A DNA stretch of 64,000 nt. Origin: Podarcis cretensis. Taxonomy: Eukaryota. The notes under the pieces were generated by a model. It worked only from the letters and a program-made list of their open reading frames with translations. It did not search any database and had not been told where the DNA came from. Position numbers and translations under genes: made by a program. The stretch spans positions 97,898,001 through 97,962,000 of the forward strand of contig OX638149.1 in NCBI GenBank assembly GCA_951804945.1, in the 5' to 3' direction. Positions 5,354 through 57,417 of this stretch are shown here, one piece after another; within the stretch, counting starts at the first letter, position 1; every line of letters begins with the position of its first letter.

Positions 5354-5679
5354 TGTTGGTTTCTGCTCTCTTCACTGTGCAGCGAAAGGCTTGTCACAAG
5401 ACAATGTTTACATTCCACAGACAGCATTGCTGTTATGTTTCCCACGGGAAAGGGGAGGCTGGATGTGACGTACACTGGTTTCCTGTTTTTCACTGTTCTT
5501 TGCAGTTCAGTGTGATTCTCTCTGTGCTTCAGAGGAGAGAGGATGCCTTTTTCTGCTTCGGCAGAGGAAAGATGCATTTCTGTAATCTACCAGCTTTGAA
5601 ATGTAAATAAAGCAATATAGAGCATGTTGGCACGTATTCCTCATCATTCCGCTGTGCACTTGGATGCTACAAATCAACA
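5354..5679 (+). repeat. 5' LTR of Copia element
   Basis: Starts TGTTGG and ends TCAACA. Direct repeat of 10144-10469 (offset 4790). AATAAA at 5606-5611. Confidence 0.97.
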
Positions 5680-5683
5680 TTAT

Positions 5684-5697
5684 GGTTATGGGCCCAG
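5684..5697 (+). promoter_or_regulatory. Primer-binding site complementary to the anticodon stem-loop of initiator tRNA-Met (half-tRNA priming)
   Basis: GGTTATGGGCCCAG is the reverse complement of CTGGGCCCATAACC in tRNAiMet. This is the PBS type of Drosophila copia and yeast Ty5. Confidence 0.93.
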
Positions 5698-6067
5698 AAG
5701 ACGCAGTCATTGGAATTCCGGAAAAAGGATCGGAATGCAGAGGGACGGATCGGACGGTATCTGCGCGTCAAGATGATTGATGAGGTATGTGCTACTGCTC
5801 CGGGCAGCCTGCCAGCTTCTATTTAATGGCTTTATGGCTGGACTTTGAACTTTTATGTCCGTTTGCCGGCTACAGGCAGCGGCTATGCCTATGCTGGGGA
5901 AATCGAAAGTAACTTTTAAAAGTGCTTTTGGGCTGAAGCAGCTGCTGATAACAGTGACGCAGCATGATTTAGGGCAGAGAGAAAGCTGTTTTGAACTTGC
6001 CTTTGGAATGAGGCTTGAAGCAGCAGAGAAGCAGCTTGTATAAAGCAGCTTGTTTAAAGCAGCAGAT

Positions 6068-9000
6068 ATGATGCAGAAGGCTAATGCCAGAGACATGATG
6101 GCCCTTCAGGATGCTTGTGGGATTCCCAAGCTCAATAAGAAAAATTATACGGACTGGGTTATCTATGCAGAGGCTATTCTGCGGAAAGAGGGTCTGTTTG
6201 AAGTTATTACAGACACCCCCCCAGCTCCAGTTACAGATGCATGGAAAGCTAAAGATTCCAAAGCAAGGGGGACTCTTACATTGATAGTATCCCCAGAAGA
6301 GCTCTGTCTATTGCGTGATAAGACCTCAGCCAGAGAAATTTGGGACGCTTTGAGGGAGGCACACTTGAGGACAGAAGCTGGGTCTACTATGTTTTATTTT
6401 AACAAGCTGCATAATATGGCTCTTGCTGAAGGTGGAGATGTGCGTACACATCTGATGGAGATGCAGAATCTGAGACATGAGCTGCAACAGAGAGGACTCA
6501 ACTTTCCAGAGGCTGTGTATTCCTTCATGATACTACAATCTTTGGGTTCAGGTTGGGAGTCTGTTGCGACTCAGATTGCTGTACAGCCTACCGCTCAGCT
6601 GACAGTGGATTATGTTACTGCCGTGATTCAAAATGAAGCAGATCGCCGGGGTGCTGGCTGCATGGGAAAGGGGGAGACTTCACAGACGTCATCCCAGAGT
6701 GCAGTGGAACCACCAGATGGCGCCAAAGCTTTGAAGGCAGTGAAATGCTACTCGTGTGGACGTCTAGGCCATATGAAGAGGGAATGCAGATATCCCAGGG
6801 CCAAGACAGAGCAGCGCAGCGAAAGCTCATCGCGTGGAAAAGGCCAAAGCAGAGGCAAAGGTCCGGTGTCCAGGACAACGCAGCCCAAAGCAATGGTCTC
6901 ACGCTTCACTCCAAAAGTTGCAGAGGTCCAGAAGACGTCTAGATCTTTCTTCGTTGTTGATTCAGCGGCAACGCACCACATGTGCAACGATAAGCGACTG
7001 TTCGTGTCTTTTACACCGCAGGAAGGTGCGATTCACCAGGCGGATGACCACACAATTCCCAGTAAAGGCTACGGAACTGTTGTTCTTCACAGTTTGGACT
7101 TATCGATACAGAATGTACTTTATGTTCCAGATGCCAAACATAATTTGCTCAGCGTTGGACAGCTGAATGAGCGGAACATTGACGTTTCCTTTAAGAACAA
7201 AAGGTGCATCATCACAAAGAAAAATGATTATGTATTGTATGCTGAATATGTTGATCGTTTGTATGTTTTGTATTATGATGATGTTGTGCAGGATGACACT
7301 TGTTGCATTGCAGGTTCTAACAAATGTTTGCATGCAGAATGTATTCATGATTTTCATCGAAAATTTGGTCATTTGGGTTTTGAGGCAGTATCTAAAATGC
7401 CTGCCTTGGTTGAAGGTATGACTATTAAACCCTGCAGGTACCACATGAAGTGCAAGGCATGCGCAGCAAACAAGGTGAAAATGGCTGCGAAAGGTAAGGT
7501 GTCTAGTAGGCAAGCTACAGAACCATACCAAATTGTTCATGCTGATTTGGTTGGACCACTAGCGCCCTCTTTGGGTGGTAATAGGTACTTCATGGTTCTC
7601 ATTGATGCATTTTCCAGATATATTTATGTGTACAATCTCAAGCAGAAATCAGAGGCTTTTCCTAGGTTCAAGGAATTCTGTGCTTGGTTGGAAAATGTGC
7701 ATGGTAAGAAGGTAAAAACTCTTTTCAGTGATCGCGGAGGGGAATTCACTTCTCAGCAGTTTGAAGCTTTTCTGTCTGAGAAAGGAATTCAACACGATTT
7801 GTCTAGTCCTCGCTCGCCATGGCAGAATGGACTTGCAGAACGAGCAAATCAGACATTGCTTCAAGGGTTAAAAACCTTGCTGCATGATGCAAATCTTCCA
7901 GAGAGTTATTGGGCCGAAGCTCTCTCATGTTTCACTTACAGTTATAATCGCAGGTTATCTTCAGCGATTGGTTGTACCCCCTATGAGAAGATGTTTGGCA
8001 AGAAGCCATACATCAAACACATGAAAATTTTTGGTTCTGACATGTGGGTTCACTCACCACAAAACTCCAAGTTAGACAAGCGTGGTTTGCATGGTATCTT
8101 TCTAGGTTATGAGAAAGGTTCTTACAGAATAAGGATGACTGACTCTAAGACCATTAAGCTCACAAGAAGTGTTGAGTACAATGCCAAGTGGGGGGAGAAT
8201 GTGGGAATTTTCCAATGTTATCCTGATGACAGTGATGAGACTGAGGATAGTCAAAAGCAACCACAGCAACCCACACCCACTGATGAAAGTTCTGATTCTG
8301 AGTCTGAAACTGAATCAGGTGATTCAGAGGATTTCAAGAGTGCAAAAGCCTCTATGCGACCCTCTGAAAGCTCTGATCAAGAATTGGAGGAACCATTGTT
8401 CACAATAGGTCGTTTTTCTCCTAAGAAGGAAGAGGAGAGTGTTGAAGACCTAAGGCTAATTCGCAGGTCACAAAGAGCCACAAAAGGTAGACCTCCAAAG
8501 AGATTTGCTGATGAGTTTGCTAAGATAGCAGTAACAGCTGTTAAAAGCTCCAAGAAGGTATTTGAACCTTCAAGTTTCCAAGAAATCCAGGATTTGGATT
8601 CAAAGGAAGCTGAGCCATGGTTAAATGCCATGAAGGCTGAGCTTGATTCCTTGGAAAGGAACAAAACATGGGAACTTGTTCCAGTAGTTCCAGGAATGAA
8701 ACTGCTTGGAAGCAAATGGGTCTTCAAAGCGAAGACTGATCAAAATGGCAAGATAGTCAGACACAAAGCCAGATTGGTAGCCAGAGGTTTTGCACAGGTA
8801 CCAGGTGAAGACTATCACGAGACCTACTCACCCACAGTGAGGTATGAGAGCATTAGGCTTATGCTCAAGCTAGCTGCAGAGGAGAATTTACACATTAGTC
8901 ACCATGATGTGAATACAGCTTTTCTGTACGGATCTCTAAATGAATCACTTTATATGCTTCCACCTGATGGCGTACAGGTAAAACAGGGATTTGTTTGTGC

Positions 9001-10096
9001 TCTGAAAAAGTCCCTTTATGGTCTCAAACAAAGTGCACGGTGTTGGCACACAAAACTCACTGAAGTATTGTTTTCTCTAGGTTTTAAGCAAGGGAAAGCT
9101 GATCCATGTGTATTTGTCAAAGAGGAGGGGCAAAAGAAACTGTATTGCTTGTTTTATGTTGATGATTTATTATTCTTTTGGGATGATGTCACAATGTACA
9201 ATAACGCCCTAGCTCAACTGAAAGAGCACTTTGACATGAAAGACCTTGGTGAGGTAAACAACTACCTATCTCTGGAAATAGAGAGAGATCAAGATGGTAA
9301 CATTCTAGTACACCAGTCATGGAAAATTGCTGATGTGTTAGGCAAACTAAACCTGATGGATGCTAACCCTGTAGACACACCGATGATAACAGGTTATCAG
9401 GTAGATGACACTGAAGAAGCATTTTCTGACACTACACTGTACAGAAGTGTGCTAGGCAAGCTAAACTTCATTGCCAGATGTTCAAGACCAGACATTGCTG
9501 TTAGCTGTAATTTGCTAAGCAGACAAGTCAACAATCCTACTGTTAAGGATTGGAAAGCTCTGAAACGCATAGCGCGGTATTTGAAAGGCACTATGCATTA
9601 CAGACTGAGATTTAACAATCAGAAGTCTGGTGGTCTTGAGATATTTGCAGATGCAAGTTTTGGAGGTGACACAACAGACAGGAAAAGCACGTCTGGAGTT
9701 TGCTATATGTACAATCAGGGTCTATTTGATTGGTCATGCAAGAAGCAAACAACAGTTAGCTTAAGTACTTGTGAAGCTGAACTGAATGCACTGTCTTATT
9801 CACTCAAAGATTGTGAATGGTTGTTACAATTGTGCAAAGACATGAAAATTCCTGTCAAATGTCCAATCCAGGTTTACCAGGACAACAAAGCATGTTTGGC
9901 TTTGCTGAATTCTGAAGGTTGTAAGCAAAGCACGAAGCACTTGCAATTGAAGTTGCAACATGCTAGGGAACGTATTCAGAAGGGACTCGTAACGGTGTCC
10001 TATATGCCAGGTAATGAAATTCCTGCTGATGTATTGTCCAAGATTGTATCAAGGGATCAACACTGTACCTATGTGCAGAAGTTGGGTTTGTACTGA
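6068..10096 (+). CDS. Copia Gag-Pol polyprotein, 1342 aa from the first ATG (the ORF track starts at TTG 6050)
   Basis: Gag start IPKLNKKNYTDW; zinc knuckle CYSCGRLGHMKREC; protease VVDSAATHHM; integrase HHCC (HRKFGH...CKAC) and DDE (HADLVGP, SDRGGEF, NGLAERAN); RT (KWVFKAK, KARLVARGF, DVNTAFL, SLYGLKQS, YVDDLL); RNase H (ADASF, DRKSTSG, STCEAE, DNKA, ADVLSK). No stops or frameshifts. Confidence 0.97.
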   Translation: MMQKANARDMMALQDACGIPKLNKKNYTDWVIYAEAILRKEGLFEVITDTPPAPVTDAWKAKDSKARGTLTLIVSPEELCLLRDKTSAREIWDALREAHLRTEAGSTMFYFNKLHNMALAEGGDVRTHLMEMQNLRHELQQRGLNFPEAVYSFMILQSLGSGWESVATQIAVQPTAQLTVDYVTAVIQNEADRRGAGCMGKGETSQTSSQSAVEPPDGAKALKAVKCYSCGRLGHMKRECRYPRAKTEQRSESSSRGKGQSRGKGPVSRTTQPKAMVSRFTPKVAEVQKTSRSFFVVDSAATHHMCNDKRLFVSFTPQEGAIHQADDHTIPSKGYGTVVLHSLDLSIQNVLYVPDAKHNLLSVGQLNERNIDVSFKNKRCIITKKNDYVLYAEYVDRLYVLYYDDVVQDDTCCIAGSNKCLHAECIHDFHRKFGHLGFEAVSKMPALVEGMTIKPCRYHMKCKACAANKVKMAAKGKVSSRQATEPYQIVHADLVGPLAPSLGGNRYFMVLIDAFSRYIYVYNLKQKSEAFPRFKEFCAWLENVHGKKVKTLFSDRGGEFTSQQFEAFLSEKGIQHDLSSPRSPWQNGLAERANQTLLQGLKTLLHDANLPESYWAEALSCFTYSYNRRLSSAIGCTPYEKMFGKKPYIKHMKIFGSDMWVHSPQNSKLDKRGLHGIFLGYEKGSYRIRMTDSKTIKLTRSVEYNAKWGENVGIFQCYPDDSDETEDSQKQPQQPTPTDESSDSESETESGDSEDFKSAKASMRPSESSDQELEEPLFTIGRFSPKKEEESVEDLRLIRRSQRATKGRPPKRFADEFAKIAVTAVKSSKKVFEPSSFQEIQDLDSKEAEPWLNAMKAELDSLERNKTWELVPVVPGMKLLGSKWVFKAKTDQNGKIVRHKARLVARGFAQVPGEDYHETYSPTVRYESIRLMLKLAAEENLHISHHDVNTAFLYGSLNESLYMLPPDGVQVKQGFVCALKKSLYGLKQSARCWHTKLTEVLFSLGFKQGKADPCVFVKEEGQKKLYCLFYVDDLLFFWDDVTMYNNALAQLKEHFDMKDLGEVNNYLSLEIERDQDGNILVHQSWKIADVLGKLNLMDANPVDTPMITGYQVDDTEEAFSDTTLYRSVLGKLNFIARCSRPDIAVSCNLLSRQVNNPTVKDWKALKRIARYLKGTMHYRLRFNNQKSGGLEIFADASFGGDTTDRKSTSGVCYMYNQGLFDWSCKKQTTVSLSTCEAELNALSYSLKDCEWLLQLCKDMKIPVKCPIQVYQDNKACLALLNSEGCKQSTKHLQLKLQHARERIQKGLVTVSYMPGNEIPADVLSKIVSRDQHCTYVQKLGLY

Positions 10097-10129
10097 TATT
10101 GTACGAACACGCTGCCCAGTGGTGTTCAC

Positions 10130-10143
10130 AGAAAGGGGGAGGA
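10130..10143 (+). promoter_or_regulatory. Polypurine tract (plus-strand primer)
   Basis: AGAAAGGGGGAGGA directly abuts the 3' LTR. Confidence 0.9.
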
Positions 10144-10469
10144 TGTTGGTTTCTGCTCTCTTCACTGTGCAGCGAAAGGCTTGTCACAAGACAATGTTTA
10201 CATTCCACAGACAGCATTGCTGTTATGTTTCCCACGGGAAAGGGGAGGCTGGATGTGACGTACACTGGTTTCCTGTTTTTCACTGTTCTTTGCAGTTCAG
10301 TGTGATTCTCTCTGTGCTTCAGAGGAGAGAGGATGCCTTTTTCTGCTTCGGCAGAGGAAAGATGCATTTCTGTAATCTACCAGCTTTGAAATGTAAATAA
10401 AGCAATATAGAGCATGTTGGCACGTATTCCTCATCATTCCGCTGTGCACTTGGATGCTACAAATCAACA
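10144..10469 (+). repeat. 3' LTR of Copia element
   Basis: Identical to 5354-5679 and followed by the TSD CTGTC. Confidence 0.97.
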
Positions 10470-11803: not shown

Positions 11804-12450
11804 AATCATAGAATCATAGAATCATAGAATCATAGAATCATAGAGTTGGAAGAGACCACAAGGGCCATCGAGTCCAAGCCCCTGCCAAGCAGGAAACACC
11901 ATCAGAGCACTCCTGACATATGGTTGTCAAGCCTCTGCTTAAAGACCTCCAAAGAAGGAGACTCCACCACACTCCTTGGCAGCAAATTCCACTGTCAAAC
12001 AGCTCTTACTGTCAGGAAGTTCTTCCTAATGTTTAGGTGGAATCTTTTTTCTTGTAGTTTGGAACCATTGCTCCGTGTCCGCTTCTCTGGAGCAGCAGAA
12101 AACAACCTTTCTCCCTCCTCTATGTGACATCCTTTTATATATTTGAACATGGCTATCATATCACCCCTACACCTCCTCTTCTCCAGGCTAAACATGCCCA
12201 GCTCCCTTAGCCGTTCCTCATAAAGCATCGTTTCCAGGCCTTTGACCATTTTGGTTGCCCTCCTCTGGACACGTTCCAGTTTGTCAGTGTCCTTCTTGAA
12301 CTGTGGTGCCCAGAACTGGACACAGTACTCCAGGTGAGGTCTGACCAGAGCAGAATACAGTGGCACTATTACTTCCCTTGATCTAGATGCTATACTCCTA
12401 TTGATGCAGCCCAGAATTGCATTGGCTTTTTTAGCTGCCGCGTCACACTG
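11804..12450 (-). mobile_element. Young 5'-truncated CR1 LINE (end of ORF2, 3'UTR and octamer tail)
   Basis: ORF 11995-12366 reads [25 protein letters not shown]...[12 protein letters not shown]...TRSNGSKL, the typical CR1 RT C-terminus. Five AATCATAG units at 11804-11843 form the (ATTCTATG)n tail. Confidence 0.95.
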
Positions 12451-12845
12451 AAGTCACACCGCGTCACACTGAAGAACCACTCATTTAAAAATTTGATCCT
12501 CAAATTGGTCACTTTCAAAAATCACTATGCTTACAATTCCCAGCCTTGCCTTCCCATTAGTCTCCCACCCCCTTTTGGGGGGCCATAATGTAGAAAACTG
12601 GAGTAGGCGTTATATCCTCAATTATTTCATTATGTGATTAAGGCTGAAATCATACAAACATTTACCTGGGAGTAAGCCCCACCTAAATGAATGGACTTTA
12701 CTCAATGGGGTAGCAATACACTATTGGACTTCAGAGTTGCCTGCCTTATAATACTATTCTAATAGAAATTCAGCTTCATTTCAGAGGACGTGGAAATTCA
12801 AGGCGATATTTACATGGTGCATACTATCAGATATATATGCTTTAA

Positions 12846-12926
12846 AAAGGTAAAGGTAAAGGGACTCCTGACAGTTAAGTCCAGTCGCGAACGACTCTGG
12901 GGTTGCAGCACTCATTTCGCTTTACC
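12846..12926 (-). mobile_element. Sauria SINE 3' fragment (different subfamily from the two long copies)
   Basis: aaaggtaaaggtaaaggg is the (ACCTTT)n tail, followed by the agtc...gactctggggttg stem-loop region. Confidence 0.8.
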
Positions 12927-39534: not shown

Positions 39535-40107
39535 CATAGCTGTCAAGTGTCCCTTATTTGAAGGGACAGTCCCTTATTCCAGCGTCATGTCCCGCTGCTG
39601 TCCCTTACTGATGGATGTCCCTTAAATGGTGTCCCTTAAATTTCAAAGGAAGCAGCTCCTCTCCCTCCCCCCCTGCCGGCCAGGGAGGAGGGAGGCTCCA
39701 ACTGTGTTGCTTGGCTGTGTTGCTCACCCAATAAGAAGTCTAAGAACGACTGGGGGGTGGAGCTTGCATGCCTTGTGTGTGGCTAGTTAATGCAAGCTGA
39801 GGAGGGTTTTGAATGCTGGATGCCGTTTTGTTGCATGTGCCGCTGCAAACTTTGCAGTGCAAAGCCAGGCCGGGGAGCCATCTTAAGTTGAGGCTGCATA
39901 GGCCTTGTGGTGCATGTGATTCAGATTCTATTCAGTTGAACCTCTGGTTACAAAGTTGGTTGGACAGTGTTCATGAAGCTACCCAGCATGAGTTTGACCA
40001 GACTGCAGGAGGACAGGAAGACTGGAGTGCCTGGAACAGGTGAGGCTGCAGGTCCCTTATTTTGGCTGCTGGTCCCTTATTTTTAAATCTGTAAGTTGAC
40101 AGCTATG
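39535..40107. mobile_element. Non-autonomous hAT DNA transposon (573 bp)
   Basis: 12-bp TIR CATAGCTGTCAA/TTGACAGCTATG, perfect 8-bp TSD GACTGAGG (39527-34 and 40108-15), and subterminal GTCCCTTA repeats at both ends. Confidence 0.92.
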
Positions 40108-40277
40108 GACTGAGGTTGATGGGGCAGTGCCTCATTTGCCACAATGAACCAGCTACCACAGACTCAACAAACCAAATTTTCGCTTCTTGTCTGGAAATGT
40201 CAAAAGAGGGAAGTTATCAAGCACCCAATGCGTTTCCTGATTCATTTATTCTTTTGTGAACGAAAAGTGACACATAC

Positions 40278-42328
40278 GACTTCCGGGTTAGCGCCATCGA
40301 CTAATGGCGGATTCCCTCCGAGCTCCGGAGGGAATCGGCTCCGCAGGATCGGGTCTTGTCCGTGGCGGCGACACGGGGACCCTTAAAAATCACAGGCCCA
40401 GGTGCCTGTGAACCTGGTGACTCGGCGGGCACCATTTGCGCCCCCCCAAACTGCGAAGGAGCCTCTTTAAAGGCTCCGGAACGGGGACGGGGTGCGGCGC
40501 GGTGTTGAGAGTACATTGCTCCTCCTGCGGAGTGAAGCCGCAAGCCATTGTCGGAGAACGCTGACTTTTTCCTTGGAACGATTGGACTTTAAAGCAACAA
40601 CCCGTGAGTAATAAGGAAATTGGAATTTAAAGAAAACTTTCTTGAATTAGGAACGAGCGGGGAAGGGTTAAAAAGGAAGTCCGCCCCCCCTCTTCGTAAA
40701 TAATCTAAAGCAAAGGACCTGTCATCTAAGGTCAAGAGAATTCTTTTTTTTTTTTTAAAGACTTTAACTTTCACGGTTTGATATTATAAGAAATTTTACT
40801 GGAGGATAAAAGATTAACTTTGGAGCTGAAGTTTCACCCCCCAGACCCGGGAGCGTCCCGCGAGAGAGCCTGTTGATGAAGTATTCAAGAGCTTGACAGC
40901 TGTCAAGCTAGCTGTCAGAAGGATAAAGAGAACTTTGTTCTGTTGCTGCTGGTGGTTATATTTGTTACAATTCTGTGAAAATAAGAAAGGGTGGATACAA
41001 ACTAACTTGATTTTTGGACTTTGAGCTGAAAGGTACATTAAGGAACTAAAATCCCCCTAGAGGGGGTTTAGGGACATTACAATGGCTGGAGGAGGGAAAA
41101 TCCAGGCTGAGTTGGACAGAACATTTGTTCTCTTGGGAAAGTTACAAGGCCAAGTCGATGCTTTGGCTAGAAGCGTCATAACTCTGGACTTAAAAGTAAA
41201 CAATGTGGTTGAACCTGATAAGGATTTGAAGCAGGAAGCCTATTCAATTGGACAATTAGAGAAACTTGAGAGCTCTCAGTTACCAGAGAGCCATGAGAGC
41301 ATGGAGGAGACATATGTTCCCCCTGAAGAAAAGGAAGGAGGAGCTGTAATTTTGCAGATGTTAAAGGAGAGTTACAACTTGTGATCTGACATGATAGCAA
41401 CAAAGGAAAATAAAAATTTGATGTGGAAAGCCTGGCCTGAATTGGAGTGTGGAAAACTGAGAGATCCCCTTATGTGGAGATCTGAAGACCGAAGGATTAC
41501 AAACTTGAACAAGGTGGAAGCTGGAGCTTTGGGGATACTTGGACTTGAAAGGAGTATGAAACAAGATTTGGAGTACCCCATAGGTCTTGCTTTTAAATAT
41601 GGAGGTCTGGCTGGAAGAAACATGGATTCTGTTGGGCCGGAGCCTCTCCGAGATTTGGGACTTAATATTAAGGACTATCAAAAAGACCGGCAGAGAGGAA
41701 TTGAAAGAGATTTAAGAGCCTCAGATGTGAGATCTCCAGGCTAAACAGTATATTGAGACAGATGGACACTTGTTGGGGACTGAAACCGGGAAAGGGGTGG
41801 GAAAGGAGTCTGGGAATCCAAAGGGTATATAATTATAACTTGTTTTGTTTTTATTGTCTTTTACTATCTGCATGGAAATTGGGAAAGCCGTGGAAGGGAA
41901 ATATTGGTCGACTTTAGGAAAATGTTCAAGAATGAGGAACGAGGTATAAGTATTTATGTTTAAGATTGGACAAGTTAAAATCGGCTCTCAAAATGGTTTA
42001 AATTAAATGAAAATAAGGTTTGTAAAAATAAATTGAGGAAATGGAAGAGGAGGAAAAATAAAATAACAATATGTTAAAATAAATTATTAAGCTAAAGTTG
42101 AGAAATAAGTAATAAGGACTTGCTGAGTTAACAATTTAAATTGGAATACAAGAAGGGGAGGTGTGAGGAGGTCTGAGAAATAAGTTAAATGAAAATAAGT
42201 AATTGAAATTTTATGTGTTTTCTAAGTGTTTTTTTTAAGTTTTGTATTTTTGTATTTTTGTTATTGTATTTTTGTCTATTTTTGTTCTCTTTCGAAAATG
42301 CCAATAAATATTTAATAAAAAAAGAAAA
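40278..42328 (+). mobile_element. Non-autonomous L1-like retroelement lacking ORF2 (~2.05 kb)
   Basis: 16-bp TSD GAAAAGTGACACATAC (40262-77 and 42329-44). CpG-rich 5' end starting GACTTCCGG. T-rich 3' tract, AATAAA at 42303-08 and an A-rich tail. No EN or RT motifs. Confidence 0.8.
41082..41744 (+). pseudogene. ~220-codon ORF1-like frame of the L1-like element, with one in-frame TGA
   Basis: Track ORFs 41082-41384 and 41391-41744 share a frame, separated by TGA at 41382-84. Good Kozak context (ACAATGG). Heptad-like N-terminus. EYPIGLAFKYGG resembles, from recall, the L1 ORF1p C-terminal domain. Confidence 0.55.
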
Positions 42329-43449
42329 GAAAAGTGACACATACATTAAAAAAAATATATACCCTGGAAAAAGCAGAGACTACAAATTCTGCAGAAGCCT
42401 CAGCTGGATAAAACGTACTGTACTAAATATCTTTAATTTGACTGTATATTTTATACTTGTAAGCAACCTTAAAAAATAATAATTCAAGGACACCACAATT
42501 ATTTTTCTTCAAACTTGGAAACCAAGAAGTTGTGATACACACAGGTCCATCTTTTGAAATCCACCAATGATCCCGGAGTCCAGACACATTATTTGTGGGC
42601 CACACTCCCACTAGTCATTTCATGCTAGAGAACATTTGTACATTATCAACAAACCTCAGCAATTGATAAGCGACTTGCATTAGTGCTCCTGTCCCCACTC
42701 AATAGCCACTCAATATTCTATTAAAGCAAACATGTTGCTTTCATCTGTCACACTAATCTCTTCATTATGCTTCTCCTTGGTGGCACATATATTATGTGGT
42801 GCAATAATTTGCCACCATAGGTTATTAAAAACCATTAGCCTGCTTCATTTTTAAATGGCAAGACTATCTGTCTAAATAACAAGCAGTGACAACTCTACAA
42901 AAGGGCGGGGAAGATGCGGTACCTGTCATGAATGCAGAAAAATATAATGCTTCATCACTAGCATATTCTTGGAGTCTAGAGTGCTGAAATGGGCTTCTAA
43001 CAGCAATGAAACCCAATAACTGATAAAGTACCTTTTGCCTTCTCATTGTCACCATGACCCTTATTTCTGCCTAGACAACTTATTCAATTATTTGCAGATT
43101 TGAGGGCTGTCACCAAAGTCTACTAATACTGAAACTCTGGTCAGAATGGCTATGTGGCCCAAGGCAAATCTCAATTAAAAACAACAATAACAAGCAAAGA
43201 CTTAAGGTTCTCATATGGCTGGATCTCTACTAGCACCCTTCCATGAATGGAAGAGCTACTTCTTTTTGCATTGAGACCGAGACCCAGTGGCAACTCCCAT
43301 TCAAGGACTTGGGAAACCAATTTTTGCCAATTCCCATCTCTTACGTTGCTCCATCCCCCAGCTCTATAGGGAATACAGGTGACTGCAGGGATATTTTCCT
43401 TTTAAAGTGAGAGGTATTTGCAGTGTCAGTGGAAAGAGATGAAGGTTTT

Positions 43450-44260: not shown

Positions 44261-45124
44261 CAGAGCTTGGGGAGTGGTCTTTAAAAGCCTTTAAAATGTA
44301 GCACACAGAACTAAATAATTCAACAGTTTCTTGAGTGCTCCTTACAAGGCAATTTATGACTTGATTATTTTCTGGAATGCTCACCTGTACCACAAGCTGA
44401 GCTCCTTGCACTGTGCATTCCCTACACACATGCACTTCTCTCCACACCACCACACTATTCCAGAAGTTCCCTCCAGACCAGATTTTTCTAGAGTTACAGG
44501 GGGCTGCAGAAGGGAAAAATGGAATTTGTAGAAATTGCCTTCCCACTTTCTTTTCAGTGGGAACATGCAGTGCATGGGGTGCCATGTGCAGAAATTTTGG
44601 ATCCAACAAAACATCCACACTGTAGTGAGGCTTTGACAATCACCTGCTGTGGTTGGCTGCCACAACAAACTCTAGGTGGGTAGGCAGAGAATTTTCATGC
44701 ATGAGAAGAACTGTAATGTATATTCCAGGAATTATCTTAATAGACCAGTTTTTCCTCAAGGGGATCAAAGTTGCAAGGTCTTCTGTTTTTCCTTGCCTCT
44801 GTGCTGACTCAGGAACACTTGCTGGTTTTTCATTGATATACAAGTCTTATACCAAGTGCTGCCTATTGATAAGAGTCAGCAACAAAAACTATGAAAGAAA
44901 TCTTGGAGGAACAGAACTCCCCATATTAATTAAAAAGGTCACCATTCTGCTAGTAAAGGCGTGATCCACTTTGACCTCAGTTTTACTGTGTCCTCCCAGT
45001 TTATAAGACAGAACATAAACCCATCTGTGTAGAAAGCACCAGTGGAGTGACTAGATTTTTGTACGAAGAACAGTATACAGGTTGAAGGTGAACTGCTAAC
45101 TTTTATTACTGGTCCCTCATAAAT

Positions 45125-48100
45125 TGTTGTTGTTGTTTAGTCGTTTAGTCGTGTCCGACTCTTCGTGACCCCATGGACCAGAGAACACCAGGCACTCCTG
45201 TCCTCCACTGCCCCCCGCAGCTTGGTCAGACTCATGCTGGTAACCTCGAAAACACTATCCAACCATCTCGTCCTCTGTCGCCCCCTTCTCCTTGTGCCCT
45301 CCATCTTCCCAACATCAGGGTCTTCTCCAGGGAGTCTTCTCTTCTCATGAGGTGGCCAAAGTACTGGAGCCTCAGCTTCACAATCTGTCCTTCCAGTGAG
45401 CACTCAGGGCTGATTTCCTTCAGAATGGAGAGGTTTGATCTTCTTGCAGTCCATGGGACTCTCAAGAGTCTCCTCCAGCACCATAATTCAAAAGCATCAA
45501 TTCTTCGGCGATCAGCCTTCTTTATGGTCCAGCTCTCACTTCCATGCATCACTACTGGGAAAACCGTAGCTTTAACTATACGGACCTTTGTTGGCAAGGT
45601 GATGTCTCTACTTCTCAAGATGCTGTCTAGGCCTGTCATTGCCCTTCTCCCAAGAAGCAGGCGTCTTTTAATTTCGTGGCTGCTGTCACCATCTGCAGTG
45701 ATCATGGAGCCCAAGAAAGTAAAATCTCTCACTGCCTCCATTTCTTCCCCTTCTATTTGCCAGGAGGTGATGGGACCAGTAGCCATGATCTTCGTTTTTT
45801 TGATGTTGAGCTTCAGACCATATTTTGCACTCTCCTCTTTCACCCTCAATAAAAGGTTCTTTAATTCCTCCTCACTTTCTGCCATCAAGGTTGTGTCATC
45901 TGCATATCTGAGGTTGTTGATATTTCTTCCGGCAATCTTAATTCCGGCTAAGGATTCATCCAGCCCAGCCTTTCGCATGATGAATTCTGCATATAAGTTA
46001 AATAAGCAGGGAGACAAAATGCAGCCTTGTCGTACTCCTTTCCCAATTTTGAACCAGTCAGTTGTTCCATATCCAGTTCTAACTGTAGCTTCTTGTCCCA
46101 CATAGAGATTTCTCAGGAGATAGATGAGGTGATCAGGCACTCCCATTTCTTTAAGAACTTGCCATAGTTTGCCATGGTCGACACAGTCAAAGGCTTTTGC
46201 ATAGTCAATGAAGCAGAAGTAAATGTCTTTCTGGAACTCTCTAGCTTTCTCCATAATCCAGCGCATGTTTGCAATTTGGTCTCTGGTTCCTCTGCCTCTT
46301 CTAAATCCAGCTTGCACTTCTGGGAGTTCTCGGTCCACATACTGCTTGAGCCTTCCTTGTAGAATTTTAAGCATAACCTTGCTAGCGTGAGAAATTAGTG
46401 CAATTGTGCGATAGTTGGAGCATTCTTTGGCACTGCCCTTCTTTGGGATTGGGATGTAGACTGATCTTCTCCAATCTTCTGGCCACTGCTGAGTTTTCCA
46501 AACTTGCTGGCATATTGAGTGTAGCACCTTAACAGCATCATCTTTTAAAATTTTAAATAGTTCAGCTGGAATACCATCACTTCCACTGGCCTTGTTATTT
46601 GCAGTGCTTTCTAAGGCCCATTTGACTTCACTCTCCAGGATGTCTGGCTCAAGGTCAGCAACCACACTACCTGGGGTATATGAGACATCCGTTTCTTTCT
46701 GGTATAATTCCTCTGTGTATTCTTGCCACCTCTTCTTGATGTCTTCTGCTTCTGTTAGGTCCTTTCCACTTTTGTCCTTTATTATGGAAATCTTTGTACG
46801 AAATGTTCCTTTCATATCTCCAATTTTCTTGAACAGATCTCTGGTTCTTCCCATTCTATTGCTTTCCTCTATTTCTTTGCATTGCTTGTTTAAGAAGGTC
46901 TTCTTGTCTCTCCTTGCTATTCTTTGGAAATCTGCATTCAATTTCCTGTATGTTTCACAATCTCCCTTGCATTTTGCTTGCCTTCTCTCCCCCGCTATTT
47001 GTAAGGCCTCATTGGACAGCCACTTTGCTTTCTTGCATTTCCTTTTCATTGGGATGGTTTTCGTTGCTGCCTCCTGTATAATGTTACGAGCCTCCATCCA
47101 TAGTTCTTCAGGCACTCTGTCCACCAAATCTAAATCCTTAAACCTGTTCCTCACTTCCACTGTGTATTCATAAGGGATTTGACTTAGATTGTATCTTACC
47201 GGCCCAGTGGTTTTTCCTACTTTCTTCAGTTTAAGCTTGAATTTTGCTATAAGAAGCTGATGATCTGAGCCACAGTCAGCTCCAGGTCTTGTTTTTGCTG
47301 ACTGTATAGAGCTTCTCCATCTTTGGCTGCAGAGAATATAATCAATCTGATTTCGATGCTGCCCATCTGGTGATGTCCATGTGTAGAGTCGTCTCTTGTG
47401 TTGTTGGAAAAGCGTGTTTGTGATGACCAGCTTGTTCTCTTGACAGAACTCTATTAGCCTTTGCCCTGCTTCGTTTTGATCTCCAAGGCCAAACTTGCCA
47501 GTTGTTCCTTTTATCTCTTGACTCCCTACTTTAGCATTCCAATCCCCTATAATGAGAAGAACATCCTTCTTTGGTGTCACTTCTATAAGGTGTTGTAAGT
47601 CTTCATAGAATTGGTCAATTTCAGTTTCTTCAGCACCAGTAGTTGGTGCATAAACTTGGATTACTGTGATGTTAAAAGGTCTGCCTTGGATTCGTATCGA
47701 GATCATTCTATCATTTTTGAGATTGCATCCCAGTACAGCTTTTGCCACTCTTTTGTTGACTATGAGGGCCACTCCATTTCTTTTACGGGTTTCTTGCCCA
47801 CAGTAGTAGATATGATGGTCAACCGAATTGAATTCACCCATTCCCGTCCATTTTAGTTCACTGATGCCCAGGATGTCAATATTTATTCTTGCCATCTCAT
47901 TTTTGACCACCTCCAACTTACCCATGTTCATGGTTCTTACATTCCAGGTTCCTATGCAATATTTTTCTTTACAGCATTGGACTTTCCTTTCGCTCCAGGC
48001 ATATCCGCAACTGAGCGTCCTTTCGGCTTTGGCCCAGCCGCTTCATCAGCTCTGGATCTACTTGTACTTGCCCTCCGCTCTTCCCCAGTAGCATGTTGGA

Positions 48101-48346
48101 CGCCTTCCGACCTGAGGGGCTCATCTTCCAGCGTCATAACTTTTATATGCCTGTTGTCTTTGTCCATGGAGTTTTCTTGGCAGGGATACTGGAGTGGCTT
48201 GCCGGTTCCTCCTCCAGGTGGATCACGTTTGGTCAAAACTCTCCACTATGACCTGTTCATCTTGGGTGCCCTGCTCGGCATAGTTCATAGCTTCTCTGAG
48301 TTCTTCAAGCCCCTTCGCCACGGCAAGGCAGTGATCCATGAAGGGG
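45125..48346 (-). mobile_element. Full-length BovB (RTE clade) LINE, 3222 bp
   Basis: 11-bp TSD CCCTCATAAAT (45114-24 and 48347-57). (CAA)n tail after ...GAGTCGGACACGACTAAACGACTAAAC. RTE-type 5'UTR. EN plus RT ORF. Confidence 0.96.
45137..48167 (-). pseudogene. BovB ORF (APE endonuclease and reverse transcriptase); ~1010 aa when two -1 frameshifts (about 47994 and 45306) are corrected
   Basis: Motifs IGTWNVRTM, DILGISELKW, QVYAPT, GDWNAK, NQIDYI, GSDH, PIPKKG, FIDYAKAFD, GVRQGCILSP, LRYADD. The C-terminus GKMEGTRRRGRQRTRWLD...KSRTRLND continues in the 45137-45403 frame. The central 899-aa track ORF has no internal stops. Confidence 0.9.
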
Positions 48347-49642
48347 CCCTCATAAATACCAAGAGATATTAGATGTCAGAATATTGGCAACACCAAACTG
48401 CAACTAGGGATAGGTGAATCTGTCGATTTTGGTTTCTCACGTTTTCATTTTCTTTTCCCCAGTCTTAAGTTCATTTCTCCACATTTCCACATTATTAATT
48501 TTTTTAAGTCATCATCAATAAAATGCATAAACTGAGATTAACCTGGCTGCAACCTTGCTTTGAACAGAGCTTGAGTACCCAGCACTAAAAAAAAATATTT
48601 TTGTGCAATCTTCTAAGATCTATACATCAAGGTAGAATGATGGTTGGCCACCGAGAGGACAGGATGCTGGACTAGATGGGCCATTGACCTGATCCAGCAG
48701 GCTCTTCTTAAACTTCATAATCTAAAGGCTATTCCCTTTCATCTATAAAGTCACTGAAAAAAGTATTAGTATATTCATTTGAAAGTTCATTTGCATCTGA
48801 GGTGTGTGTGACTTTCAAGCTTTCCCCACAGCAACATGGATGTAATTAGATTTAAGAATGAATTCAGTAGTTTCTTAATTAGCCAAACGATGGAGCATTC
48901 TAATTGTTTGTGCATGTAGGCACTGGGATGAAAAGAAATTGCTTTTTCATAAGAACTGGTAGTAAAGATATGGCTCTGTGGGGAACACATCATTCAACAG
49001 TGGGAGGGGGGAACACAGAGAACAAATGCAATGCCTGTGTTTCAACAATGTACAAGCTTAACAAAAAGATAAAAGGACCCAATCCAGAGAAGCAGTAGAA
49101 AGTGGTGTACCCAAGTAGAATCTGGGAACATAGGCAGTGAGAGGAGGACACTGACAAGATAAATAGCCATTCACATCTGATCCCAGCATTGAATTGAAAG
49201 CTATAGTGCACTCAGTTTAAATCTAATAACCTACACAAGTACTGTTCCTTCTGCGTGCACAACACCTTGTGATTTACATGTAGAACATTAGATGGGATCT
49301 ATCCTATATGTCCTGCTTTCCAACCGCCTGCTACCCTTCCCTATATGACCAAGTTTCTTTCTTTTTTGAAAATGCATATTAGGTAGAGAAGGACAGCTCC
49401 AGGGTAGACACCACTGATGGGATCCCCACCGACCTGGCACTGGTCTGCCGATATCAGGTGTTTGCATCAGTACTGATGTACAGTGCAAAACTGCAATTTC
49501 AGCCAAAAGTTAGACCAGGTCCAAGAAAGAACTAAGGTATCGGTTTAGACAGCTAGTAGGATTGCCTTGGCAAGCCTTCACTTTGGCTCACAACTGTGTT
49601 GGCATGACCAAAGTTGCATTAGGGGTACCTACCTCTCAATTA

Positions 49643-50005
49643 GGGACGCAGGTGGCGCTGTGGGTTAAAGCCTCAGCGCCTAGGACTTGCCGATCGAAAG
49701 GTCGGCGGTTCGAATCCCTGCGGCGGGGTGCGCTCCCGCTGCTCGGTCCCAGCGCCTGCCAACCTAGCAGTTCGAAAGCACCTCCGGGTGCAAGTAGATA
49801 AATAGGGACCGCTTACCAGCGGGAAGGTAAACGGCATTTCCGTGTGCGGCTCTGGCTCGCCAGAGCAGCGATGTCACGCTGGCCACGTGACCCGGAAGTG
49901 TCTCAGGACAGCGCTGGCCCCTGGCCTCTTAAGTGAGATGGGCGCACAACCCCAGAGTCTGTCAAGACTGGCCCGTACGGGCAGGGGTACCTTTACCTTT
50001 ACCTT
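49643..50005 (+). mobile_element. Full-length young Sauria (Squam1) SINE
   Basis: GGGACGC start, A box (ggtggcgctgtggg), B box (ggttcgaatccc), (ACCTTT)n tail, TSD TACCTCTCAATTA (49630-42 and 50006-18), CpGs retained. Confidence 0.95.
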
Positions 50006-54560: not shown

Positions 54561-57067
54561 TGCAATCATAAAAGGGTGGTGGCACTGACTGAAAAGTGAC
54601 AATAAATGTGGCAGCCTTCTTCTGTGCGAGCAGTCCCTCCTTTCAGCAACAGCACACTATCCAAAAGAAGAATGCAATAAAATGAACTCCTTCCATTTCT
54701 GGTGCTTACTAGCAAGGGCTCACTGCAAGAGAAGTTTCATCTATCGATTAAAAAGTAGAATGGAATCTTCAAATACTGTGTGAACTAGTGCAGAACAAAT
54801 AGTAGAACCATAGTGTCATTGTACAGTATAGCCAGCCAATTTATTTGTTTCATGTCCTAAATGCAAAACAAAGTCTACATTCACATAGCTATTATCCGTT
54901 ATTTATTAATTATGCATCACACCTTCAATACATTTCAACAATTACTCCAGCTTTAAAAGATGATGCTATCTATATTTGATAAGAGTGGGACCAAAGCTTA
55001 CATTAATCGTATTTGTATCATTCTTCTAATTCCTTCAGCGTTAAAAACACCCTCAAGGATGTTATTAGTCAAATCTATTATTGTCAAATCTAAGAACACA
55101 AAGATCTGACAGAGTTATTGTTTCACTAGCTTGCCTTTGATACCATCTACCCCCCTGAAGAAATGAATTTAGAACAAAGGATTTATAATTTAGCAGTATT
55201 CATAACTTCAAAAGAGTTCTTTTTTAATGACAGTCTAAGAACTGCATGGGCCAAGGTGACTGATAATCCATGCAGTCAACAGGGACCTGATATTTAGTGG
55301 AGTGGAGAAAAATTCACTTTTGGGGTGGGGTGGGGACTTCATTGCCCAGGTTCCAGTCTGTTGGAGAAACAACACATTTACCAGCTTCCCGCAAGACCAC
55401 GTCTGTTACATGTCATGAACAGTTTGTTTGTGGTTTAATTGTCTATTGCCTTGAACAGTTTGTTGCAAAGGGGACACAGAAGCTTTATGAACAAACAGAT
55501 TATCATATTTATACCAACCTAAAACCATGCAGTTTCAAAAGAAACACAGCGCCAAGTGCATCAGCACAATAGCCCACATCGGAACTGGGTAAATAGGTTT
55601 TGTCTAGCTTTGGATGGTGCACTAGTTGTGCCTATTTCAGGTACAACTGGGCTTGGCCAAGTTGCATCTTTGACTACTGGGGCACCATTTATGTGGGCTG
55701 CCATTGAAAACCACTCATAAACTTCAGCTGGTGTTAATGCCACTACTAAAATTATGAGTAGGGCATATAAAATAATTCCATTAGATGCCTTATTTTTCTC
55801 TTTACTCCTTCTTATTTTGTTTTTCACTCAAGACCAAAGAGTACTGCAAATTATCCAGATCATCTGCACATATTTTTGCACCAGTTGTATTTTTACACAC
55901 AAGAACTAACTCTTGCCCTCAAAACTGATAATGATAAGCTAACATTTTAGACATGTGAAAAAAGCTTTGGTGATAAATATTGCCACTGTCATTTTTCTTT
56001 GGCAATGCTAAATGTCAGTATCAGATTAAAAAATATTGTGGCAGGGGAGGGGAGAGTGTGAGTCATACAGGGAAGTATAATGTGAAACAATTTGTTTGCT
56101 ACGCAACATGCCATTACTGATCTGCAACATTTTGCATTGGCTCAGATTTGGAATAAGGCATGATGTGACCTGAGTTATGAAGGCACTTCCAATTTCTGTC
56201 ACACCATGGCTTAAATTAGGGTATCTGCAAAAATGTCCCACATGGCTCAAAGTGTACTATAATAAAGACTTTTAAGCCTAAAGTGCTATCCCCATCACCC
56301 CATGGCTATTTTCATTCACAGAATCACCTGCTGGTGGAATTTGCTTAGTGGCTCAGTGCTCTCTGTGTTATCATTCTCTGACAAACCCACAAGAAAACCC
56401 ACATGGGAAATTAAAGCTAAACGCAGCTCATGCGTTTCCATTCCACTCTGCCAAATGACCTCCACTGTGAAGGGAGTAGGCAGCATGCACGAGTGGGAGA
56501 GATATTGACAGACAGGGCTACGCAAGGAACACATGGGCCTAGGGGTCACTTGCATGGTGCCACAGCACCAGAAGAATGTGTGGGCTATAAGCCTCTAGAG
56601 AGGGAAGCTCTAGAGTTCCTCCACAGAGAGCTGACCACAAGTTTGGCAATATTATTTTTACTGGAGGCAAACTTTCAGTTTTGAAAGCACTTGCCTTTCG
56701 CAAAGAAACAGAGGCCAATGCATTCAACCCCAACTGAACAAAGGGTGCATTAAACAATCAAGCATTTCTGAACCTCTCCTGTTTCCATGCACATATAAAA
56801 TCATATGCCTCACTAAAAGGTGTATTATTCATTCACCCTGGAGGAGTTTCCAGCTCTATGGGAAATGCATCTTTCCCACTCTCCGGCTTCATGTTGTAGA
56901 TGAGGTGCTGCTACCTCCCTGAATGAATGAATGAATGAATGAATGTACAATGGGAACTAGCACAAAGCTGCTCCTGAGAAAATCAGAGAAATGAGTCAAG
57001 CTAAGCTTATCCATCACTAAGTATTGGGGTTTAAAAGTTTCGTAGCAGTTATAAATGTTAGCATATT

Positions 57068-57417
57068 AAAGGTAAAGGTACCCCTGCCCGTACGGGCCAG
57101 TCTTGACAGACTCTGGGGTTGTGCGCCCATCTCACTTAAGAGGCCAGGGGCCAGCGCTGTCCGGAGACACTTCCGGGTCACGTGGCCAGCGTGACATCGC
57201 TGCTCTGGCGAGCCAGAGCCGCACACGGAAACGCCGTTTACCTTCCCGCTGGTAAGCGGTCCCTATTTATCTACTTGCACCTGGAGGTGCTTTCGAACTG
57301 CTAGGTTGGCAGGCGCTGGGACCGAGCAGCGGGAGCGTACCCCGCCGCAGGGATTCGAACCGCCGACCTTTCGATCGGCAAGTCCTAGGCACTGAGGCTT
57401 TAACCCACAGCGCCACC
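57068..57417 (-). mobile_element. Young Sauria (Squam1) SINE missing ~9 nt at the 5' end
   Basis: Reverse complement of 49652-50000 with about 5 substitutions. aaaggtaaaggt tail. Confidence 0.95.

Follow-up and report, generated by a model that had tools for sequence, protein, structure and literature searches.

The window considered here (the whole stretch of DNA analysed, 64 kb) contains a 2-kb insertion with the ends of an L1 retrotransposon and, between them, a single short reading frame. This raises the questions of how such an element was mobilized, whether it stands for a family and what its protein might do. We think it fairly probable that it represents a family of non-autonomous elements that would descend from a lizard clade-1 L1 through loss of ORF2, with a protein that would serve as an adaptor in cis. 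The element and the marks of its insertion, in coordinates of the window, are:

40278..42328, + strand: whole element, 2051 nt, an ORF2-less L1 derivative delimited by flanking target-site duplications (TSDs), frame scan and ends
40262..40277, + strand: 5' TSD, 16 bp, same letters as 42329-42344
42329..42344, + strand: 3' TSD, 16 bp, same letters as 40262-40277
41745..42328, + strand: 3' UTR, 584 nt, with a G-rich start, an A-rich middle, a T-rich tract (about 42195-42293), two AATAAA and an A tail

The two copies of the TSD, GAAAAGTGACACATAC, are identical at 16 of 16 positions, and this 16-mer occurs twice in the 64-kb window, both times flanking the element. The bottom strand at the 5' TSD junction reads TTTTC/G (pyrimidine/purine), which we take to be a junction of the L1-endonuclease type. 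Two AATAAA hexamers lie at 42303 and 42314. The element closes with a short A tail of 12 nt, one of them G (42317-42328); given four further AATAAA upstream inside the element, AATAAA alone is weak evidence for a 3' end. The marks of target-primed reverse transcription (TPRT) in the L1 clade, namely a TSD with an A-rich 5' end, a polyadenylation signal and an A tail, are all present.

Missing is the ORF2 with APE endonuclease (EN) plus reverse transcriptase (RT) that makes an L1 autonomous. None of the six read-through frames of the element (X at stops) gave a match to any Pfam family, EN and RT included, at E ≤ 1, and the same scan, applied to the RTE and Copia ORFs of the window as positive controls, returned RT and endonuclease/integrase matches. 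That is, the window copy has both L1 ends and no ORF2, as expected of a HAL1 element. No second copy was found within the 64-kb window, and Rfam gave no match at E ≤ 1 for the element (from 40,278) with its flanks (39800-42800). Because it has a TSD and a tail and no ORF2, we infer trans-mobilization by L1 ORF2p: on established knowledge, the RNA would very probably be made from the internal CpG promoter described below, polyadenylated and inserted by TPRT with the ORF2p of an autonomous L1.

Other mobile sequences lie in the same window. Its Copia LTR retrotransposon (5354-10469) is intact-looking, with 326-nt LTRs at 5354-5679 and 10144-10469 (TG...CA); its gag-pol frame (6047-10093) is open over 1349 aa and contains gag, zinc knuckle, integrase and RVT_2 domains. 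Since the LTRs are identical, the insertion is very recent, and Copia elements are uncommon in amniotes. On the minus strand, a LINE that we take to be of the RTE/BovB type (about 45100-48370) has a 936-codon open stretch with endonuclease and RT domains, and a 152-codon open stretch without a significant Pfam match (about 11995-12453) is presumably the end of a CR1-type ORF2. Two 351-nt copies of a repeat that we assume to be Sauria-SINE-like lie in opposite orientation (49651-50001 and 57067-57417) and are 99% identical, with shorter related pieces near 12846-12905. The RTE/BovB-type LINE and these SINE-like copies, together with a Podarcis lilfordi member of the protein family described below, make a lacertid lizard the probable host. 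Closer by, 170 nt upstream of the element, is a hAT-like non-autonomous DNA transposon (39535-40107) with 12-bp terminal inverted repeats and an 8-bp TSD (39527 and 40108).

The parentage of the element can be read mainly from its 5' end, which has these features:

40278..41081, + strand: 5' UTR and internal promoter, 804 nt (Anolis clade-1 L1 range 792-1465 nt; PMC5381506 Table 2)
40278..40309, + strand: 5' terminus GACTTCCGG-N17-ATGGCG, plus an inverted CGCCAT at 40292
40310..40336, + strand: perfect 11-bp hairpin with loop AGCTC, directly after ATGGCG
40278..40700, + strand: CpG island, observed/expected (o/e) 1.01
40890..40909, no strand: 20-bp palindrome containing TGACAGCTGTCA, unique in the window

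According to Boissinot and Sookdeo, writing on Anolis, the 5' consensus of lizard clade-1 L1 is GACTTCCGGTG-N8-ATGGCG, at the head of a 5' UTR of 792-1465 nt with two CpG islands (PMC5381506). An (A)GCTC hairpin with differing stems can be seen by eye after ATGGCG in six of the seven Anolis clade-1 5' ends displayed there, the seventh (L1_AC9) having another 5' UTR, described as a new promoter (PMC5381506). In the element, folding of 40278-40520 gave a z of -3.7, and the CpG o/e is 1.01 over the first 423 nt (40278-40700), against 0.22 for the window and 0.21 for the ORF, with a second, small CpG cluster at 40848-40862. The 3' UTRs of lizard L1s are T-rich (PMC5381506 section 13), and that of the element agrees. 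The terminal motifs, the hairpin, the CpG island and length of the 5' UTR and the type of the 3' UTR, matched by eye and without alignment, together indicate that the ends are those of a lizard clade-1 L1.

An earlier note, made from the sequence of this DNA, had described an L1-like unit that retrotransposed whole, with a perfect A-rich 16-bp TSD, a CpG-rich 5' end, AATAAA and an A tail, and with no EN or RT sequence. This description of an L1-derived, ORF2-less unit inserted by TPRT stands; the two copies of the TSD are indeed identical, with A-richness confined to the 5' end of the duplication (8 A in 16).

Some smaller features of the 5' UTR may be recorded here. The 20-bp palindrome, which we assume could be a TALE-homeodomain-type site, has a core that also occurs in the terminal repeat of the adjoining DNA transposon (39535-40107). 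An upstream ORF of 35 codons (40304-40411) starts at the ATG within ATGGCG; Pfam gave no match for it at E ≤ 10. A splice-donor-like GTGAGT lies 326 nt into the 5' UTR (40604-40609), and GTAAG is seen by eye at comparable depth in Anolis clade-1 5' UTRs (PMC5381506 supplement); a 5' UTR intron conserved between the element and Anolis clade-1 L1 is possible. Just upstream of the main ATG, the stretch 41046-41081 appears to be conserved, because 12-residue N-terminal extensions of three distant homologues of the protein (P0011, P0013 and P0015) align there; a small hairpin in this stretch is not significant (z 0.1).

Downstream of the 5' UTR lies the only substantial frame of the element:

41082..41744, + strand: mini-ORF, 220 codons, with one in-frame TGA (X at the break)
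41382..41384, + strand: premature TGA inactivating the window copy, Arg in the closest homologues

The mini-ORF begins at ATG 41082 in a strong Kozak context (ACAATGG), is interrupted at 41382-41384 and ends with TAA at 41742-41744. Only 4 of 1000 shuffles of local composition yielded a frame this long with one stop allowed, and across this interval 16 and 17 stops interrupt the remaining two forward frames. The two closest full-length homologues (62% and 46% identity) have Arg at the position of the TGA, as does P0004 by eye; taken with the CpG depletion of the ORF (o/e 0.21), this is consistent with CpG decay. The window copy is thus a dead yet complete element, killed by a nonsense codon.

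These homologues, of 215 and 212 aa and both open over their full length, came from a first protein search, in which nothing more than 62% identical to the window protein was found. A profile search of 1.84 billion representative proteins (no length limit, E ≤ 0.001) gave 13 matches, 12 of them of 129-215 aa and one a retroviral env protein (P0012), and there was no full-length ORF1p, ORF1-ORF2 fusion or ORF2 domain among them. Three more were added by a further search, for a total of 15 homologous ORFs of 129-215 aa, one of them from Podarcis lilfordi, plus the env-fused fragment; these are known from proteins alone, whose contigs, where given, measure 1.0-1.2 kb. A terminal motif, SD[VIL]xxPG-stop, ends 12 of the 15 homologous ORFs (13 of 16 counting the window protein), the exceptions being P0004 and P0014, which diverge abruptly as if frameshifted, and P0010, which ends early. 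In P0012, the tail (residues 442-503) is a family fragment 55% identical to residues 21-75 of the window protein, which suggests that a 5'-truncated copy was inserted into an endogenous retrovirus, or else that the contig is chimeric. Alignment A3 and its counts left out P0004 (frameshifted), P0012 (env fusion) and P0014 (fragment).

A tree of 14 rows has at least three groups, and the three subfamilies so defined, whose identity to the window protein ranges from 25 to 64%, have start and stop in common. In a neutral simulation that ignored indels, 6 of 1000 runs kept an open frame at 64% identity, 2 of 1000 at 46% and none of 1000 at 30%. Protein databases favour open frames, so this survival argument is inflated; common start and stop positions at 25-30% identity are nonetheless hard to get by ascertainment. 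From the common start and stop, the open frames and the Arg at the TGA site, all of them protein-level data, the ORF has been held open by selection across several diverged subfamilies. The single frame of about 220 codons that had been singled out earlier, with its strong Kozak context and a TGA read as decay of this one copy, is in this way confirmed, as a member of a family whose frames are open well beyond neutral expectation (0-6 in 1000).

Two alternatives can be weighed at this point. One is that the short frame is the ORF1 of an autonomous lizard L1 and that a single internal deletion, at the time of insertion or later, removed ORF2 from this copy. L1 internal deletions do occur, and a single copy of the element is known at the DNA level, the contigs of its homologues being as short as given above. 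We consider such a deletion quite improbable, however, since no ORF2 remnant is found in any frame, the 584 nt after the stop resemble a single 3' UTR, close to normal in size (Anolis clade 1: 194-570 nt; PMC5381506), and an ORF1 without an RRM or C-terminal domain (CTD) contradicts the CCD-RRM-CTD plan of 55 out of 55 vertebrate L1 consensuses (PMC5381506 section 10). The other is that the protein serves the host as a dominant-negative inhibitor of L1. A coiled coil that lacks RNA-binding domains might poison the trimers of ORF1p, as may be inferred from PMC10588031, but the window copy, flanked by TSDs, is an insertion that carries a nonsense codon, and the frameshifted or env-inserted P0004, P0012 and P0014 speak for a mobile family and not one conserved gene, all of which makes a host-serving role highly improbable.

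The protein of this presumed non-autonomous family can be divided as follows:

41100..41228, + strand: residues 7-49, heptad-repeat amphipathic helix, coiled-coil-like
41229..41366, + strand: residues ~50-95, acidic linker of variable length
41574..41591, + strand: YPIGLA, residues 165-170, earlier called a CTD-like motif, not significant
41700..41744, + strand: conserved C-terminal 14 residues ending in SD[VIL]xxPG-stop, the most conserved part of the family

Residues 7-49 have a spectral peak at period 3.5 that 12 of 20000 shuffles reach, a p-value that is optimistic in that this stretch was picked by eye. The a and d positions stay hydrophobic while the residues change (mean hydropathy +2.4 vs -1.1), and AlphaFold gives residues 1-40 of the homologue P0002 a pLDDT of 79-92; the coiled-coil-like N-terminus proposed in the earlier note therefore holds. 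The helix comprises about six heptads and lacks a basic N-terminus (0-2 K/R in the first 10 residues), and a three-copy complex prediction for residues 1-62 scored 0.17 (mark 0.32). Averaged over pairs, identity reaches 59% in the last 20 residues and 39% in the first 20, but falls to 21-33% between them, a part from which 25-40 residues are missing in several members. Substitutions in the terminal motif are conservative (V/L/I, R/K, D/E), and the C-terminal peptide had no match outside the family. AlphaFold2 on 14 rows reached a mean pLDDT of 49.8, was confident in the N-terminal helix only and produced no strands; the C-terminal half modelled alone likewise had a pLDDT of 50 and no strands, and Foldseek with this poor AlphaFold2 model returned nothing at E ≤ 0.001.

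Is this protein an ORF1p? It had been read earlier as a truncated ORF1p with a CTD motif, a reading to which no sequence, profile or structure test lent support. Pfam gave no match at E ≤ 10 for any of four queries (the whole ORF, each of its halves and the upstream ORF of 35 codons), none for three aligned members and sub-threshold noise for 11 further ones, bar the env domain of P0012; ORF1p was thus matched by none of the 14 family proteins scanned. Searches of PDB sequences (one protein, two profiles and one fragment) returned chance coiled-coil matches only, and the ESM Atlas held no usable match for P0002 or P0016. RRM and CTD were not detected by Pfam, PDB-sequence, AlphaFold or Foldseek comparison, all of them run without a squamate ORF1p control, and these blanks may reflect mammal-biased models. 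The likeness of YPIGLA to the human ORF1p motif YPAKLS (PMC2951350) was rejected as evidence for a CTD: it extends to 3 of 6 positions, which is chance level (reached by 63% of 2000 shuffles), and the exact YPxxL pattern, found in 686 of 20000 shuffles, is present in 1 of the 16 family proteins. Conservation is moreover the reverse of that in vertebrate L1 ORF1p, where RRM and CTD are the conserved part (PMC5381506 section 10), the mini-protein keeping its ends and being least constrained in the RRM/CTD region. The mini-ORF, at 33% A and 43% GC, is also less A-rich than lizard L1 ORF1 (37% GC; PMC5381506).

One might then suppose that the ORF does not come from ORF1 at all and that a coding sequence either unrelated or newly formed was captured by L1 ends, a supposition compatible with the rest of the best explanation and favoured by the lack of ORF1p matches in Pfam, PDB sequences, the ESM Atlas and (with a poor model) Foldseek. 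We regard such a capture as unlikely. Family columns 160-174, with the pattern K-[QY]-x-[LW]...[LF]-x-[FL]-x-Y-G, bear a possible resemblance to the C-terminal domains of squamate ORF1p, and the blanks were obtained without a squamate ORF1p as positive control. HAL1 ORF1 is known to persist without ORF2 (PMC3627910). Descent from ORF1 is the likeliest origin because the ORF sits in the ORF1 position, after an 804-nt L1 5' UTR, and begins with heptads, and on these grounds we hold that the mini-ORF probably descends from ORF1.

If so, the protein of about 200 aa would be a much-reduced ORF1p descendant, and we put at about even the chance that it acts as a cis adaptor that docks its own RNA onto L1 particles. 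Such a protein would no longer package RNA via RRM and CTD. Its N-terminal heptads would, while translation is under way, become entangled with L1 ORF1p coiled coils, the entanglement would bring the element's own mRNA into L1 particles, and the poly(A) of that mRNA would compete for ORF2p. The conserved C-terminal peptide would be a second functional part, either slowing termination and so holding the nascent chain on the mRNA that encodes it, or binding a partner. Some link in cis is required, since selection on a mobile element can act only if the RNA that encodes the protein benefits, and no RNA-binding domain is evident in that protein.

Co-assembly of the mini-protein with L1 particles is plausible by analogy. 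The proteins of ORF1-only elements were proposed by Kojima to multimerise with those of the helper (PMC5786205), and an engineered ORF1-only mRNA depended on a functional ORF1p supplied in cis, with ORF2p provided in trans (PMC11260458). Distinct human ORF1p coiled coils formed mixed trimers only upon co-expression (PMC10588031), and the N-terminal heptads of human ORF1p can open, linking trimers (PMC5940361 section 19); human ORF1p also requires a basic N-terminus (PMC5940361), which the mini-protein lacks. Against an adaptor, coiled coils were not seen to assemble co-translationally in trans in a proteome-wide study that PMC10588031 cites, and for retention of the protein on its own mRNA the C-terminal peptide is the candidate. 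Just as well, that peptide might serve in binding, or an RNA signal might lie hidden behind it.

The same family could also do without an L1 partner, selection acting merely for a translatable frame (through ribosome association, mRNA stability or self-oligomerisation) and the 3' end of the ORF being an RNA signal. This would suit the middle of the protein, with its low identity, its 25-40-residue indels and its lack of an AlphaFold fold, and the sequence flanking the ATG and the stop, which looks conserved in frameshifted read-throughs of distant members; ribosome association is, moreover, a model for the capture of ORF2p by SINEs (PMC11260458). Yet the substitutions in the terminal motif are conservative, heptad hydrophobicity is kept and folding of the RNA at the stop is poorer than in shuffles (z +2.1), and we give this alternative little credence. 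A special form of the adaptor, which we think distinctly doubtful, is a two-ended tether, in which the SD[VIL]xxPG-stop peptide would arrest or slow the ribosome while the coiled coil, on a flexible spacer of 150 residues, hooks L1 ORF1p. Such a tether would be a protein-coded counterpart of the ribosome-binding strategy by which Alu steals ORF2p, and it would give direct access to the means by which non-autonomous RNAs overcome the cis preference of L1.

How RNAs of polymerase II such as HAL1 and SVA capture ORF2p is stated in PMC11260458 to be unresolved. A family that dropped ORF2 and apparently the RNA-binding half of ORF1p, and kept a heptad helix and a terminal peptide at 25% identity, would mark the minimal parts for ORF2p capture. 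If the protein were merely a decayed, recognisable ORF1p, the family would be another independent HAL1 origin, mainly of interest for repeat libraries. We found no description of a squamate ORF1-only L1 in the literature outside subscription journals, Repbase Reports and bioRxiv supplements; automated lacertid repeat libraries may well hold an unannotated consensus of the family.

Among known systems, the 2A/StopGo peptides of non-LTR retrotransposons share with the terminal motif a conserved end in PG, often NPG, with D-V/I just upstream, but in the family motif the Glu is absent, the length is one residue less and a stop takes the place of the Pro that follows (PMC3708506). Membership in that group (GD[V/I]ExNPG, then P) was rejected, D[VI]ExNPG being matched by 0 of 16 proteins. 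HeT-A (Jockey clade) and Ag-Sponge (CR1 clade) are likewise non-autonomous LINEs that encode a protein, one proposed to multimerise with that of the helper (PMC5786205). They differ in belonging to other LINE clades and other hosts. The ORF1 proteins of both remain recognisable.

With lizard clade-1 L1 (Anolis L1_AC1-AC14) the element shares the GACTTCCGG...ATGGCG terminus, the hairpin that follows, a long CpG-rich 5' UTR, a T-rich 3' UTR and AATAAA with an A tail (PMC5381506). It is, however, 2.05 kb long and without ORF2 where these L1s have 6.4 kb, its ORF measures 663 nt against 1,066 ± 21 for ORF1, the spacer in its 5' motif is 17 nt instead of 10, and conservation lies in the two ends of its protein where that of the L1s lies in RRM and CTD (PMC5381506).

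The closest likeness, as the earlier note had it, is with HAL1 (human, rat, guinea pig and the bat HAL1_ML), described as having arisen repeatedly and independently, with ends derived from L1, a single ORF where ORF1 would be, no ORF2 and a coding capacity long held (PMC5753468, PMC3627910, PMC5786205); the comparison fits in the L1 ends, the missing ORF2 and the single ORF kept by selection. As to amplification, the family is represented by 15 homologous ORFs and an env-fused fragment, known as proteins, and by one copy in the window. HAL1 is described in these sources as encoding ORF1p, whereas the protein here has heptads and, in comparisons without a squamate control, no detectable RRM or CTD, its best-conserved part being a C-terminal peptide without match elsewhere. 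The element differs further in its squamate host and lizard clade-1 L1 ends, and it would extend ORF1-only L1 parasites from mammals to lizards.
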